Positions 25,764-44,074 of a stretch of DNA of 64,000 nucleotides are shown piece after piece. The number at the start of each line of letters is the position of its first letter. Position 1 is the first letter of the stretch. The notes beneath the pieces are model-generated. The model was not told the origin of the DNA. It worked only from the letters and a program-made list of their open reading frames with translations, and searched no databases. The translations under genes were made by a program, and so were the position numbers. Location: NCBI GenBank assembly GCA_963834385.1, contig CAWIBO010000003.1:96001-160000 (forward strand), read 5' to 3'. The DNA comes from an uncultured Verrucomicrobiae bacterium (GTDB taxonomy: Bacteria > Verrucomicrobiota > Verrucomicrobiia > Chthoniobacterales > UBA10450).

Positions 25764-26802
25764 ATGGCCACGAAAACCGAAGAAAAATCGAGCGCGGACA
25801 AGGTGACCGCGGCCCGGAACAAGAATCTCGACCTTGCCCTCCAGCAAATCGCAAAGGATTACGGCGACGGCGCCATCATGCGCCTGGGGGATAGCAACAT
25901 TGTCGAAATCGATGTCATTCCCACAGGCAACATTTTGATCGACCGGGCCCTTGGCGTGGGCGGCTTTCCCCGAGGCCGGGTAGTGGAGGTCTACGGACCG
26001 GAATCATCCGGAAAGACCACGCTCACCCTGACGGTGATCGCGCAGGCGCAAAAGCGGGGTGGCCTTGCCGCCTTTGTTGATGTGGAACACGCCCTCGACC
26101 CGCAATACGCGCGGCGCCTGGGGGTGAACATGGACGACCTCCTCGTTTCCCAGCCCAGCTCGGGCGAGGAAGCGCTTCGCATCGTGGAAACTTTGGTCCG
26201 CTCCAATGCCCTCGACGTCATCGTGCTCGACTCCGTGGCCGCCCTCGTGACCAAGCAGGAACTCGAAGGGGAGATCGGCGATTCCACCGTCGGCGCCCAG
26301 GCCCGTCTGATGAGCGCGGCCATGCGCAAGCTGACCTCGCTCATCTCCAAGGCCCGCACCTGCTGCATTTTCACCAACCAGATCCGCGAAAAGATTGGCG
26401 TCATGTTCGGCAACCCCGAGACCACCCCCGGCGGCAAGGCGCTCAAATTCTACGCCAGCGTCCGGGTGGATATCCGCCGCATCGGCGCGATCAAGCAGAC
26501 CGACGGCGTGGTCACCGGGAACCGCACCCGCGTGAAGGTGGTGAAGAACAAGGTCGCGCCCCCGTTCACCGAGGCAGAGTTCGATATCATGTATAACGAG
26601 GGCATTTCCTCGACTGGCGCCCTGATCGATCTCGCCCTGGAAAAACAGATCATCGAGAAGCGCGGTTCCTGGCTCAGCTACAAGGGAACGCAGTTGGCGC
26701 AGGGTCGCGACGCGGCCAAGGAAGCGCTCAAGGCGGATGCCGGCCCTCTACGAGGAGATCGAAACCGCGGTCAAGGCGAAGCTCGACGAGGAAAAAGAAT
26801 AA
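25764..26802 (+). CDS. recA: Recombinase RecA (1-base frameshift near 26742)
   Basis: [39 protein letters not shown]. The true C-terminus [18 protein letters not shown] is in a shifted frame. Confidence 0.97.
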
Positions 26803-26809
26803 CGCCCAC

Positions 26810-27460
26810 CTATTGGAAGACGATTTCGGTCTCGAACTGACCCGCCGGCTGCCGGTGCAGCTCGAGAAATTTCGGCGCGATCTTCTCGGGATCAAAACGG
26901 GTCCCGGGTTTTACGAACCCGCCGATGGTGACGGTGGCGACATGAATTCCTTGGGGGGCAAGTTCGCGCGCCAGGACAAAAGCGAGGTTGCGGAGAGCGG
27001 CCTTGCCGATCCCCACGGAGGCGAACTGCGGCATCGGTTCGAGCGCCAGAATGCCGCCGGTGAAAAGAATGGTGCCGCGCCCCGCCTTTTTCATCCCTTC
27101 GAGAACGCAGCGGGTTGAGACCAGCGCACCGACCAGGCTGAGACGCAGATCCTCTTCGAGTTGTTCGGGGGAAAGCGCGCTAGCGGGCGCTTTGCGAAAG
27201 GCAAAGGCGTTGTAAACCAGAACCTCCGGCGCGCCCAGCTCGGCCTCGATCTGCCCGAAAACCGGGACCAGCTCGTCAGCCTTTGAGGCATCGGCCGCGA
27301 AGAAGCGCGCGCCGTTATCCTCCAGCTCCTTCAGTTGCTCTTCTTTGCCCGTGCGAGAACGCGCGACCAGCCCAAGCTGAAAACCCTCCCCGGCGAAGAC
27401 GCGGGCGATCGCATGGCCGTTCCCCGGTCCAAATCCGATAACTGCGCAGACTTTGCTCAT
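26810..27460 (-). CDS. SDR family oxidoreductase
   Basis: Rossmann [27 protein letters not shown]. Confidence 0.88.
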
Positions 27461-27567
27461 CTCTCCCATGGTTCGTCCGGGAAAGGCAGGCGGATGAGCC
27501 AAACTGGCCTGAAAGCCCGGATTGGCCCGGCGCTTTACCCCGGCCCTGCGCCGCGTAATCTTCGCGC

Positions 27568-30500
27568 GTGATGACCAGCGCGCAGATCCGGCAAAGCTTC
27601 CTCGATTTCTTTCGCGAGAAGCAGCACACCATTGTGCCCTCCTCCTCGCTCCTCCCGGATTCGCCCAACCTTCTTTTCACCAACGCCGGGATGAACCAGT
27701 TCGTCCCGATCTTTTTGGGGCAGCAATCCGCGCCCTGGTCGCCGCCGCGCACGGCCGATACGCAGAAGTGCATCCGGGCCGGCGGCAAACACAACGATCT
27801 CGATGATGTCGGGCTCGATACGTATCACCACACGTTCTTCGAGATGCTGGGGAACTGGAGCTTTGGCGATTACTTCAAGAAGGAGGCCATCGAATGGGCC
27901 TGGGAACTGGTGGTGGAGAATTGGAAACTGCCGCCGGCGCGCCTTTACGCGACGGTTTACCGGCCGGGCCCGGGCGATCCCGCGGAGTTCGATCAGGAGG
28001 CGCACGATCACTGGGCGCGTTTGTTTAAGAAGGCGGGGCTCGATCCCGCGGTGCAGATCGTGGACGGCAACAAGAAGGACAACTTTTGGATGATGGGCGA
28101 GACCGGCCCGTGCGGACCGTGCAGCGAGCTGCACATCGACCTGACGCCGGACGGCGACACGAAAGGTGCGCTCGTGAACATGGGCGACGCCCGCTGCATC
28201 GAGATCTGGAACCTCGTCTTCATCCAGTTCAACGCCAACGCCGATGGCACATTCGTTCCGCTGCCCGCACGCCACGTCGATACCGGGATGGGTTTCGAAC
28301 GCGTCACCGCCATGATCCAGGGGACGAAAAATTTCACCGATTTCAGCGGCATCATCTCAAATTACGAGACCGATGTCTTCCGCCCGATCTTCGACGAGAT
28401 CGAAAAGCAGAGCGGCAAACGGTATAGGAGCACATTGCCCGTCCCGGGTAGGGTGGGCGTCCCGCCCGCCGGTTCAGGCGTCCCGCCTGAACGAACTTTC
28501 GCACCTGAACAAAGGACCGCGCCCCAGGCGCAAAAGACCGGGCTGCAAGATGCAGCCCTCGGCGGGCAGGATGCCCACCCTACCCGGGACAATGCCCGCG
28601 CCACGTCAGATCAGCTCGCCACCGACATCGCGTTTCGGGTTATCGCCGATCATATCCGCACCCTCAGCTTTGCCATCGCCGACGGCATCCAGCCCGGGAA
28701 CGAAGGCCGCGGCTATGTCCTGCGCCGCATCCTGCAGGCGCGCCGTCCGCTACGGCCGCACCCTCGGCTTCCACGAGCCCTTTTTCTCCAAATTGGTCGG
28801 CGTGCTCGTCCGCAGCCTGGGCGATGTCTTCCCCGAGCTGCGCGAGAAGCAGGTCACAATCGAGGAAACATTGAAACGCGAGGAAGAGTCGTTCAACAGA
28901 ACCCTCGACCGCGGCATCGAACTCTTCGAGCGCGAAGCCGCGCGCCTCTCGGGTAGGGTGGGCGTCCCGCCCGCCGGTTCAGGCGTCTCGCCTGAACAAA
29001 CTTCCGAACCCACCAAAGGCGCCACCTACACCCGTCGCCGTCGTCTCCCTCATTTCGAGCAACCATGGGCCCTCTACGCCTTGACCATTTCGACCGCCAA
29101 CCGCCGCAAACTGCCGCCGGAGTCGCGCACCATCGTCCTGGACGCCCTGCGCCATTTCGACGAATCGCGCTATACGCTTATCGCCGCCTGCGTCATGCCC
29201 GACCACATCCACGCTCTTCTCCAGCCGTGGCCAAAAGAACAGAACGAGCAGGGCGAAACGGTTTTCTGGTCGCTCAGCGAGCTGATGCACTCGCTCAAAT
29301 CATTCACGGCCAAGGAGATCAATAAGGCCGAAGGCACAACAGGCCCGGTCTGGGAGCAGGAACGGTTTGATCGCTATGTGCGTGGCGACCGGGACCTGGA
29401 GGAGAAGTTTCAGTATATCGTGACCAATCCTGAGCGGGAGGGGCTCGGGACGGACTATCCCTGGGTTTGGACTCGGGAAGATCGTTCAGGCAGGATGCCT
29501 GAACCGGCGGGCGGGACGCCCACCCTACCCGGGAGTGGAGAATCCGCCGCTCATGTCATCTCCGGTGAGTTCGCTTTCCGGCTTTACGACGAACAGGGAT
29601 TTCCGCTCGATCTCACGGAGTTGATGGCGCGCGAACGCGGTCTCACCGTTGACACCGCCGGTTTCGAGAAGCTGATGGAGGAACAGCGAACGCGGGCGCG
29701 CGCGGCGCAAAAGAAGACAACGATCGAGTTGGCGGAAGGCAGCGAAGCGGACGCACGCACCAACTTTCTCGGTTACGAGCACGACCATACCGGCGCCGAC
29801 GTGGAAGCCGTGACCCCGGCCAAGGGAAAGACTGCCGTTATTCTGAACAACACCGTTTGCTACGCGGAGATGGGCGGACAGGTCGGCGACACCGGGGAGC
29901 TGGCCGCGGGCGAGAAACGCTGGCGCATCCTCGATACCCGCAAGGCCGGCCACGCCTGGGTCCATCTCGTGGACAACGCCGACGCCCTCGCCCCGGGCGC
30001 GCACGTCACCGTGCGCTACGACGCCACCCGGCGGCGCGCCATTGAACGGCATCACACCGTGACCCATCTGCTGCACTGGGCGCTGCATGAGATCGTCTCG
30101 CGCGAAGCCGTGCAAAAGGGCAGCTATGTGGGCCCGGAAAAGCTCACCTTTGATTTCTCGAGCGCGCCCCTGAGCAAAGACCAGGTGGCCGCGGTGGAAA
30201 AAAGGGTCAACGAACGGATCGCGGAAAACGCCCCGGTTTCGTGGACGGAGATTCCCTACGCCGAGGCCAGGAAGCGCGAGCGATATCCAGCAATTTTTCG
30301 GCGACAAATACGGCGAAAAAGTCCGGGTGGTGCAGATCGGCGGCAAGGCGGGAGAATTGAACGGCTACTCGATGGAACTCTGCGGCGGCACCCATGTGCG
30401 CGCCACGGGCGAGCTGGGCTGGTTCAAGATCACTGGTGAAGCCGCCATCGCCGCCGGTATCCGGCGCATCGAGGCTGTCGCGGGCACGGCCGTGGCCGAC

Positions 30501-31070
30501 TGGGCCCGGACGGAAAGTGCCCGTCAGGACGAGCGTTTCTCCGGTTTGCTGCGCAAGAAAAATGAGCTGCCGCCGTTGCCGGAGATCCGGCAATGGGATC
30601 AACCGGCGACGTTACTGGAAGAGATCGAGGCCCGGGCGACGCATTTGCGCCGACTCGAAGGCGAGGTGCACGACTGGGAAAAACAGCAGGCCAAGGCGGC
30701 CGAATCCGCGTTGCAACAGCGCGCCGCTGCGGTCGCGGAGGAGCTGGCCGGGAGCCTGGCCGGGGCGACGTCGTGCGTGGCCCATGTGCCGGAGGCTGAA
30801 GGCAACCTGCTCCAGGCCGTGGCTGACCTTCTCAAGACCCGGGTGCCGGGCCCGGTGGTCCTGGCCGGCTCGCACGACGGCCGGGTGCACCTGGTGGCGA
30901 ACGTGCCGAAGGGCGTGACCCCCGGGGCCAATCAGATCATTCAGGAGATGGCGCCGTTGGTGGGGGGCAAAGGGGGCGGCCGCCCGGAAAACGCCCGGGG
31001 CTCAGGGAAAGACGTTAGCCGGATCGACGAGGCCCTGGCAAAGGCGCGGCTGCTGCTCGGGCTCGCCTAA
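27568..31070 (+). CDS. alaS: Alanine--tRNA ligase with two in-frame REP-derived insertions (1-base frameshifts near 28736 and 30277)
   Basis: [73 protein letters not shown], spread over three successive frames. Confidence 0.96.
28441..28590. repeat. Non-autonomous GTAG-REP doublet (REPIN-like) inside alaS
   Basis: 31 bp inverted repeat (28441-28471 vs 28560-28590, 2 differences) with internal hairpins at 28472-28492 and 28540-28558. Confidence 0.88.
28950..29531 (+). mobile_element. REP-flanked RAYT (TnpA-REP, HUH/Y1 transposase) element in frame inside alaS
   Basis: 48 bp inverted repeats (28950-28997 vs 29484-29531, 3 differences). Encodes RRRLPH, MPDHIH (HUH, 29204-29212), [21 protein letters not shown] and YIVTNP (Tyr at 29414). 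Confidence 0.9.
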
Positions 31071-32291
31071 TCGGGCAACGCGAGGGTGACAAGGAAGGTG
31101 GCGAGCAAGGCGGCCAGCAGGACAAAAAGATAGACGATGCCGCCGAGGAGGAATTTCACCGTGGTGAGCAGCCAGCCCTGGCGGTAGACGGTGCGGATGG
31201 AGCGGAAAATCTGGGCGACAAAAGCGAGCCAAAGGAAAAAGACGATCCATTCGCCCAGGCCCGCGAAACCGGCCCGGTTGAACCCGAGCTGGAGCAGAAT
31301 GATCGCGACTGTGCCGAGATAGGCGAAGGCGTGGACGATGAGGGCGTAAATGAGGTGATCGACATAATAGATCTTCCGAAAGAGATAGAGTCCCTTCAGG
31401 ACGAGAGCGAAGAGCGGGATGCAGGCGAGCATCATGTAAGGGAGGTTGTTCAACACGGACATCAGAAAGAGCTGCAATTGTCCTCCCTGAGGGCCCAACC
31501 TTTCGCGGCCGCGTTTTTCCAGCCATTTTTCGAAATCGGTCCGGGGCGGCCGCTCGCTCGAGCCGAAGTGAAGAGTGGGTTCGCCGCTTTCACGGGCCAG
31601 CGCCGTGCGAAGCTGGCGGCGGCTTTCCGGCGAGAGCTTTTCCATGGCCGTCTCGATTCGGGCTTTGACCTCAGGCGAGATGGTTTTGTCGGTGACAATC
31701 GGCGCCGGTGAATCTGCGGCTGGGGAGGGTGATGCCGCCGCCGGGGTCCCGGCGGTGACCGGCGGCCGGGCTTGCCCGCTCCAGTTTCAGCAGGTTCTTG
31801 AGCCTTTCCCGGTCGGATTCGGTCAGTTCGGAGCGGTCGAGCTCGGCGGCGATCTCCGCCCGCATTTGGTCTGTCAGGCCGACCCCCTGAATGTTGGCCG
31901 ATTTCGCCCAGTAGGTGACGGCGAAGAAAAAGAGAATGCTTGCGACCAGGTAGAGGCGGAGGGGATGGAAATAGCGCTGGCGCATGCCGGCAATGAAATT
32001 GCGGCAGAGCAGGCCCGGGTTGACGAAAAGGAGGGCGGCGGTGCGGGTGAACTTCGAGTCCCAGTTCAGGAAGGCCTCGGCCACGTCGGCCATGAGATGA
32101 CGCAGCGAGCGGTGATAATCGATCGCTGCCTGGCCGCAATGGGCGCAATATTGGCCGGTCACCGGACTTCCGCAGTTCTGGCACTGGACGAGCCGGACTC
32201 CTCGGCGTTTGCGCTCTTTCCGGCGCGGCGGTTCACTCTCCGCCGCCGCGACGGCATCAGCGAAAACAAACTGGGCCGGCTCGTCGTCCAT
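31067..32291 (-). CDS. DUF3667-like membrane protein (frameshift near 31700)
   Basis: CQNCG...[19 protein letters not shown]-terminal TM helices with [10 protein letters not shown]. Confidence 0.8.
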
Positions 32292-43858: not shown

Positions 43859-44074
43859 GTGAATCGTGAATGGTGAATCGTGAATGGTGTGCGGGTCGGC
43901 TTCTTCGGTAGGGCGACGCTCTGCGGAGCCTGGGAGCACGCGCCGCCAGCTGTGAAACGAGGGCTAACTCCCGGCTCTTCGTCTTCCTCTGCTCTTTCTC
44001 GGTGCCCTCTGCGGTCTCTGTGGTAAGTCTCCTGGTTCGCCTGCTCCCAGGCTCGACGGAGTCTCGCCCCACCG
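43859..44074. repeat. Composite intergenic repeat: 7-mer tandem, GTAG-REP doublet and internal 9-mer tandem
   Basis: (GTGAATS)x4 at 43859-43886; 33 bp imperfect inverted repeat 43906-43938 / 44042-44074; 9-mers at 43998-44024. Confidence 0.8.

Follow-up and report, generated by a model that had tools for sequence, protein, structure and literature searches.

The window analyzed here, a 64,000-nucleotide stretch of contig CAWIBO010000003.1 from an uncultured Verrucomicrobiae bacterium of the order Chthoniobacterales, carries an alanyl-tRNA synthetase (AlaRS) gene, alaS, that houses two related palindromic elements. The gene, recognized by the Pfam and NCBIfam models for alanine-tRNA ligase, extends from 27568 to 31070 on the plus strand. 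The first element, which is our main subject, is a 150-bp palindrome at 28441 to 28590 (plus strand). The second lies about 360 bp downstream, at 28946 to 29535 on the same strand, and contains a transposase of the REP-associated tyrosine transposase (RAYT) type, where REP denotes a repetitive extragenic palindromic sequence. Both elements are read in frame with alaS. The evidence set out below gives good support to the view that the palindrome is a REP doublet (of the type called REPIN, for REP doublet forming a hairpin) and that it belongs to the RAYT element's own family of GTAG-tagged REPs.

The alaS match is distributed over three reading frames. The first piece (27568 to 28734, plus strand, frame 1) encodes the aminoacylation domain and holds the insert; it matches Pfam tRNA-synt_2c in two stretches (E value, 2.4e-115) and positions 1 to 304 of the equivalog model TIGR00344. 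One extra base at 28735 to 28736, between ...RRIL and RRAVRYG..., separates it from the second piece (28736 to 30280, plus strand, frame 2), which holds the RAYT element, matches tRNA-synt_2c (again in two stretches) together with Y1_Tnp, and covers TIGR00344 positions 377 to 631. Another extra base at 30278 to 30281, after ...ARKR, leads into the third piece (30282 to 31070, plus strand, frame 0), with tRNA_SAD and DHHA1 domains and TIGR00344 positions 637 to 846. Both breaks were located by three-frame translation. The pieces score 369, 254, and 116 bits against TIGR00344, each alone below the 457-bit cutoff, and there is no full-length match to this model in a single frame. The initial annotation of this DNA had described an essential gene read straight through the insert; the insert is indeed in frame, but the division of the gene among three frames had been missed. 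The first break lies about 145 bp downstream of the insert, and the insert itself keeps the frame.

The outer arms of the palindrome (28441 to 28471 and 28560 to 28590) are 31 nt each, 94% complementary, and 88 nt apart. Folded as single-stranded DNA, the region reaches −66.9 kcal/mol (z = −10.6), and none of 200 shuffled sequences was as stable. Each arm consists of a GTAG tag followed directly by an 8-bp, G+C-rich hairpin and then by a second hairpin of 8 or 9 bp. In the left arm (28448 to 28492, plus strand), the tag occupies 28448 to 28451, hairpin 1 occupies 28452 to 28470 (8-bp stem), and hairpin 2 occupies 28472 to 28492 (9-bp stem); the fold of this arm (28441 to 28495) was estimated at −18.6 kcal/mol, a stability matched by 0 of 200 shuffles. 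The right arm (28540 to 28583) is laid out on the minus strand, with the tag at 28580 to 28583, hairpin 1 at 28561 to 28579, and hairpin 2 at 28540 to 28558. Its minus-strand fold (28536 to 28590) reaches −17.6 kcal/mol, and 1 of 200 shuffles was as stable. Hairpin 1 of the right arm is closed by an A-T variant of the stem pair, and the sequence of its hairpin 2 is unlike that of its left-arm counterpart. Compared with the core of the family, in which conservation across 200 arms begins at CGGGTAGGG and to which roughly 28445 to 28586 of the insert corresponds, the left arm has no mismatch and the right arm has two. These two pair with each other, as a compensated change from G-C to A-T. The same stem pair was G-C in 136, A-T in 30, and another combination in 2 of 168 arms taken from the 84 paired family elements that we fetched; this covariation indicates that the hairpin is under constraint in the family.

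The relationship between the palindrome and its larger neighbor is close. The RAYT element has 60-nt inverted arms that are 90% complementary and enclose a transposase core at about 29012 to 29476. Its reading frame scores 79.5 bits against the NCBIfam model REP_Tyr_transpos, just under the cutoff of 80, and 26.5 bits against Pfam Y1_Tnp, above the cutoff of 23; the strings PDHIHALL and FQYIVTNP are present in its alignment, and we take them to be the HUH and tyrosine motifs of the RAYT. The left arms of the two elements are 90% identical over 69 nt, including a stretch beyond the repeat, and the alaS frame runs through both of these arms in the same register. Allowing up to 3 mismatches, we found four occurrences of the 20-mer GGTAGGGTGGGCGTCCCGCC in the window, compared with 0.01 expected by chance, and all four are arms of the two alaS elements; a looser 26-mer scan (up to 7 mismatches) detected no further copy in the window, which thus holds two elements and four arms of this GTAG-REP family. 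The initial annotation had anticipated much of this, and its account of a 150-bp palindrome, of left arms alike even past the repeat and read in one frame, of no other copy in the window, and of a nonautonomous member of the RAYT element's family is borne out by the common arms and GTAG hairpins. The insert therefore has the inverted REP units that yield one long hairpin, the short hairpin behind a GTAG tetranucleotide in both arms, and a cognate RAYT flanked by the same REPs in the same genome, as a REPIN should; where it departs from that description is in its site, which is not extragenic but inside alaS and in frame. The hexamer TGCCCG stands on both sides of the insert (28436 to 28441 and 28593 to 28598), which may be chance, the insert being the single element inspected for a target duplication.

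Read in the alaS frame, the palindrome amounts to 50 codons without a stop (VPGRVGV...DAHPTRD), preceded by ...GKRYRSTLP, and the host frame resumes after it, in agreement with the roughly 50 added residues noted earlier. It is therefore an in-frame coding palindrome within a known gene. Pro, Gly, Ala, Ser, Thr, and Gln make up 64% of its composition. If the frame is read as it stands, the ribosome would add some 48 to 50 residues, many of them Pro, Gly, or Ala. Human cytoplasmic AlaRS aligns to residues 2 to 298 and 348 to 389 of the N-terminal piece from the window, and the corresponding human segments, residues 2 to 282 and 284 to 325, flank the insert. Since human residues 282 and 284 border the gap, the insert expands a very short inter-helix loop of the aminoacylation domain, directly ahead of a helix.

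To compare this loop among relatives, we aligned the best 120 AlaRS relatives with the window sequence (121 sequences in total). All 120 relatives are uninterrupted proteins of 758 to 1,211 amino acids, with 74 to 85% identity to the N-terminal piece and 73 to 79% core identity to the whole protein. The short form of the loop, with 21 to 23 residues, is found in 19 of the 121 sequences, and the other 102 have more than 23 residues there. An insert of the GRVGV type, as in the window, is present in 20 sequences (19 relatives and the window), and the rest are filled in other ways, several of them likewise starting with a reading that resembles that of a GTAG tag. On a tree of 117 sequences, computed from 880 core columns after the insert columns had been taken out, 59 changes of loop type were required, compared with a mean of 76.3 after shuffling; thus, loop type is not random, yet it is far from having one origin per type. 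The GRVGV type itself is scattered over the tree, with 17 changes for 20 sequences. Sister sequences make the same point: P0004 and P0120, with 94.5% core identity, carry a GRVGV insert and none, respectively; P0027 and P0070 (95.5%) carry GSAxV and GQALRLP; and P0063 and P0079 (93.2%) carry GRLGETPA and GQALRLP. The loop therefore changes much faster than the enzyme around it. Across the order, then, the alaS loop is variable, and close relatives carry different fillings or none. This turnover is possibly new.

These comparisons refine how the insert may have arrived. The initial annotation had envisaged a RAYT-driven local hop into a tolerant loop. Placement in a short loop is supported by the alignment to human residues 282/284, and 19 relatives carry the same type of insert, but a hop from a neighboring RAYT is not required, because 16 of the 20 AlaRS sequences with a GRVGV-type insert have no RAYT in alaS. 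Nor does a single local event fit the pattern across the order, where even close relatives differ in what the loop contains. Some association between the two elements can nonetheless be seen: among the 17 RAYT-bearing AlaRS sequences, all three with RAYT arms of the GRVGV type also have a GRVGV-type insert in the loop (Fisher P = 0.006, uncorrected for relatedness).

The insert also has relatives outside alaS. A search of representative genomes for the family motif, in which any base was allowed at two positions, yielded at least 115 loci, nearly all of them in Chthoniobacterales or other Verrucomicrobiota metagenome-assembled genomes (MAGs). Three of the loci (L042, L064, and L072) lie in MAGs labeled Bryobacteraceae, Phycisphaerales, and Rhodoferax; these could be misbinned contigs or could reflect transfer of the repeat. 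Among the matches listed, related MAGs contributed several loci each (e.g., four from isolate BP_744), and the 115 loci comprised 84 paired elements and 37 solo arms, many of the latter at contig ends. Most of the 84 paired elements span 95 to 219 bp; two larger ones (560 and 593 bp) include a RAYT. The whole insert, spacer included, matches these loci at 70 to 81% identity in 24 alignments that are 120 nt or longer, in most cases a single alignment for each locus. None of the 115 listed loci places an element inside alaS; in another Chthoniobacterales genome, a family element (L089:182-320) lies about 140 bp upstream of the alaS start.

For gene placement we used the 80 loci with wide flanks, which contain 56 paired elements. 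Among these matches, 12 of the 56 elements lie in frame inside Pfam-recognized genes, encoding ValRS, LeuRS, ThrRS (twice), MutS, AcrB (twice), an MmeI-type enzyme, DUF7133 proteins (twice), a DUF58 protein, and a ThuA protein. Both ThrRS hosts (L013 and L020) carry a whole RAYT, and in 10 of the 12 elements the host frame leads into the GRVGV reading, just as it does in the window. Seven more of the 56 lie just upstream of, or at the start of, recognized genes, so that the repeat family is found both inside and outside genes. Among 30 further flanking open reading frames, no recognized gene was broken out of frame by an element. The insert peptide was also found in carbamoyl-phosphate synthase (two proteins), N6 methylases (two), a DUF7133 protein, and a class II synthetase. 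The insert in alaS is thus a member of a multicopy GTAG-REP family, it has a cognate RAYT in the same gene, and the genic copies of the family are in frame without stops.

Taken together, these data make it quite likely that a nonautonomous REP doublet, cognate to the RAYT 360 bp downstream, sits in frame in a tolerated, variable loop of AlaRS, and that the frame breaks in the window copy of the gene are probably sequence error. Such an element would move as folded single-stranded DNA that the RAYT cuts and rejoins at the GTAG-hairpin. Insertions that break an essential gene would be lost, and the copies left inside genes would be those in frame in tolerant loops, where a retained insert would then be translated as a flexible loop. 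As for the variability of the loop, a resident REP may offer the RAYT a site for exchange; alternatively, homologous recombination may move alleles between strains.

Several points weigh against this reading. By composition alone the insert is open in 3 of its 6 frames; the absence of a stop is therefore weak evidence by itself, and translation of the insert is predicted from the frame. An AlphaFold model of the 389-residue N-terminal piece, built with an alignment of 36 relatives, had a mean predicted local distance difference test (pLDDT) score of 43.6 and was unusable for locating the insert on the protein surface; the aligned relatives are too alike (78 to 90% identity). In the census of gene placement, which covers 80 of at least 115 loci, 37 of the 56 paired elements have no assigned position with respect to recognized genes. 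All 20 matches to the GSAxV-type peptide, from 473 candidates, are AlaRS proteins; this type may be a long-standing insert that has diverged at its site instead of belonging to a second mobile family, and to that extent repeated insertion is less well supported. Among the fetched loci, which were selected for the GRVGV family, the peptide motifs of other loop types gave two matches for GQALRLP, one for the right end of GSAxV, and none for the other four. In addition, RAYT-mediated movement is attributed to this family by analogy. Finally, there is the state of alaS itself: the gene is not one open frame in the window, and the public protein set contains it as a 574-amino-acid fragment (P0121), so the breaks are present in the deposited sequence.

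This last point could mean that the gene is dead, with real frameshifts, a working alaS elsewhere in the genome, and an element that is tolerated in a place where frame no longer matters. The two +1 breaks and the deposited fragment are what such a gene would look like, and the breaks are clustered, with one in recA (near 26739), those in alaS (near 28735 and 30278), and possibly one in a DUF3667 gene on the minus strand (about 31650 to 31800, where a phase shift in third-position GC content [GC3] suggests a further break, unconfirmed), while the rest of the window is clean. We judged frame integrity across the window by a Pfam coverage scan, since the GC3 phase plot was too noisy; about 45 other genes, including one for a 1,330-amino-acid RpoB, have full domain coverage. 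Beyond the extra bases, however, alaS shows no damage. Alignment to six relatives accounts for each break by one extra base with no residue lost, the corrected frames contain no stop over about 1,160 codons, and core identity remains at 73 to 79%. The recA gene, 2 kb upstream, is hit by a like single extra base, and none of the three bases in recA and alaS falls within a homopolymer run. Because single extra bases are clustered within 5 kb and these two core genes are otherwise undamaged, a stretch of poor sequence fits better than the death of both genes, and we regard the breaks in alaS and recA as a probable, if unproven, local problem of sequence quality. Furthermore, the same insert is in frame in 19 intact AlaRS proteins of other organisms. 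The initial annotation had reasoned that the frame would be conserved by coincidence if alaS were a pseudogene; two frameshifts are indeed there, but the conservation is no coincidence, because intact relatives carry the same insert. A dead gene is thus unlikely.

The segment could also be an old AlaRS expansion that was inherited vertically and merely resembles a repeat, or a single ancient insertion that now evolves as ordinary protein. That 102 of the 121 aligned sequences have a loop of more than 23 residues, and that the GSAxV type was seen only in AlaRS, would fit such a history. It is nevertheless hard to reconcile with arms that retain the family core, down to the compensated pair, with matches of the whole element to unrelated loci at 70 to 81% identity, with the same peptide in unrelated proteins, or with 17 changes among 20 sequences and sisters of 94.5% identity that differ by presence and absence. 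We therefore consider this history very unlikely. It is also conceivable that the protein never contains the insert, because part of the population has excised the element from the DNA, because the RNA is processed, or because ribosomes bypass it; in favor of this, its strong hairpin (−66.9 kcal/mol as DNA) could in principle act at the RNA level. Removal would abolish the need for an open frame, yet all 12 genic copies keep the frame and lack stops, and no out-of-frame break of a recognized gene was seen in the 30 further reading frames. A scan of 27400 to 31200 against Rfam at an E value of up to 1 gave no match. Intein junctions are defined by a nucleophile and by His-Asn residues; the insert starts with VPGR and is followed by NAR, which are not these. 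Removal of the element is, accordingly, extremely improbable.

The nearest precedent is found in another verrucomicrobium. In-frame GTAG REPs, single and as dimers, were listed for many bacteria in 2013 and most of all for Opitutus terrae (Di Nocera et al. 2013, PMC3733652), to which 70 rows of supplementary file 3 are devoted; 30 of these rows were compared here. The build of the alaS arms, a GTAG followed by hairpins, is the published build of GTAG-type REPs (PMC3733652). Like the O. terrae repeats, the elements described here are GTAG-tagged hairpins, single or as inverted dimers, set in frame inside known verrucomicrobial proteins, and their peptides are comparable (GTGVPPV...GRDARAT in O. 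terrae and GRVGVPPAG... here); an acriflavin-resistance (AcrB-type) protein is among the hosts in O. terrae, as in the Chthoniobacterales family (PMC3733652). On the other hand, the repeat family and the order are different, and the alaS insert is a longer dimer, of about 50 residues as against 20 to 30 for most inserts in that study (PMC3733652). The alaS gene is absent from the published list, and neither "alanyl" nor "transposase" occurs in the supplements; in the parts of PMC3733652 consulted, there is neither a RAYT in frame inside a host gene nor variation of one loop among close relatives. The statement of the initial annotation that REPs are typically extragenic overlooks these intragenic repeats. 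Since in-frame GTAG REPs in Verrucomicrobia were published in 2013 (PMC3733652), the insert itself belongs to an already known kind, and its novelty is modest.

Two other systems bear comparison, each as described in the parts of the cited papers that were consulted. Rickettsia palindromic elements (RPEs) are palindromic repeats of about 150 bp that lie in frame in many unrelated genes and add peptide segments to their products (PMC3733652, PMC10969869). They resemble the insert, at the level of description, in palindrome size and in-frame insertion; no transposase is named for RPEs in these sources (PMC3733652, PMC10969869), whereas the cognate RAYT of the alaS insert lies in the same gene. 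The REPIN-RAYT systems of Pseudomonas and Escherichia coli (Bertels and Rainey 2011, PMC3116915; Corneloup et al. 2021, PMC8266576) have in common with the alaS elements a REP doublet that forms a long hairpin, an HUH/Y1 transposase flanked by the same REPs, and a REP composed of a conserved motif and a hairpin, which the transposase recognizes on single-stranded DNA. Their REPINs and RAYTs are located outside genes, however (PMC3116915, PMC8266576), whereas both are here inside an essential gene and in frame. The transposase TnpAREP processes its REPs in vitro, and a model of movement as single-stranded DNA has been proposed; how REPs spread is still described as poorly understood (PMC8266576).

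With this insert, alaS and an uncultured soil order join the genes known to carry REP palindromes that are read in frame, which lends support to the idea that selfish repeats can become protein sequence. One AlaRS loop that has no insert, this insert, or one of several others in near-identical hosts constitutes a natural allele series, in which the tolerance of an essential enzyme for foreign sequence and the gain and loss of REP doublets could both be tested. The RAYT in frame raises a further testable question, namely, whether the host enzyme is produced with the transposase as one of its parts and whether the transposase is active in that form.

The RAYT in the window is not alone in its position. 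It occupies a second loop of AlaRS, at about 28945 after ...FEREAARL, where about half of the 121 sequences have no insert, 17 sequences besides the window have a RAYT, and in the others the site is filled by unrelated sequence that makes the loop as much as about 100 residues longer than it is without an insert. At least three lineages of arms and RAYTs are present at this site, and in both alaS loops the content turns over more quickly than the host protein. RAYT distances follow host distances weakly (Mantel r = 0.16, reached by 115 of 2,000 permutations; 17 sequences) and thus give no clear choice between vertical descent and repeated insertion. One of these proteins, P0110, reads DYVH where others read DH[VI]H, presumably the HUH motif, and its RAYT copy may be inactive.

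Relatives of the window RAYT are also found within other hosts. Among the best 150 cluster representatives related to it, 51 are at least 330 amino acids long, and Pfam also identified a host family in 45 of these 51. The hosts are AlaRS (17 proteins), valyl-type class I synthetases (6), PurH (5), RecG (4), DNA methylases (2), and DUF1156 proteins (2), with PriA, DnaK, BirA, shikimate kinase, Ham1, a glycyl-radical enzyme, and three others represented once each. In the proteins whose domain positions were compared (P0128, P0141, P0182, and P0243), the transposase is flanked by host domains on either side; many of the 45 sequences are incomplete and show host sequence to one side of it. The nesting of RAYTs, in frame, within housekeeping genes is possibly new: in a literature search outside of which most subscription journals fell, we found no report of a RAYT or other transposase in frame inside a synthetase or essential gene and none of REPs in Chthoniobacter. 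We tentatively suggest, at somewhat less than even confidence, that these elements represent an undescribed REPIN-RAYT way of life, in which the transposase and its miniature partners both reside in frame inside essential housekeeping genes. If so, the essential gene would protect the elements against deletion, much as it protects inteins, although no splicing would be involved, and the host enzyme would be produced with the transposase as an internal domain.

Elsewhere in the window, a second inverted-repeat pair of a different sequence family is located at 43906 to 44074. A composed 24-base motif of this pair had no match in the fetched loci, and its overall fold is not unusual (z = −1.2). 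Its 37-nt arms are 81% complementary, one containing GTAG and the other GTGG, and the pair is extragenic, lying between an RmuC gene and a DUF885 gene.

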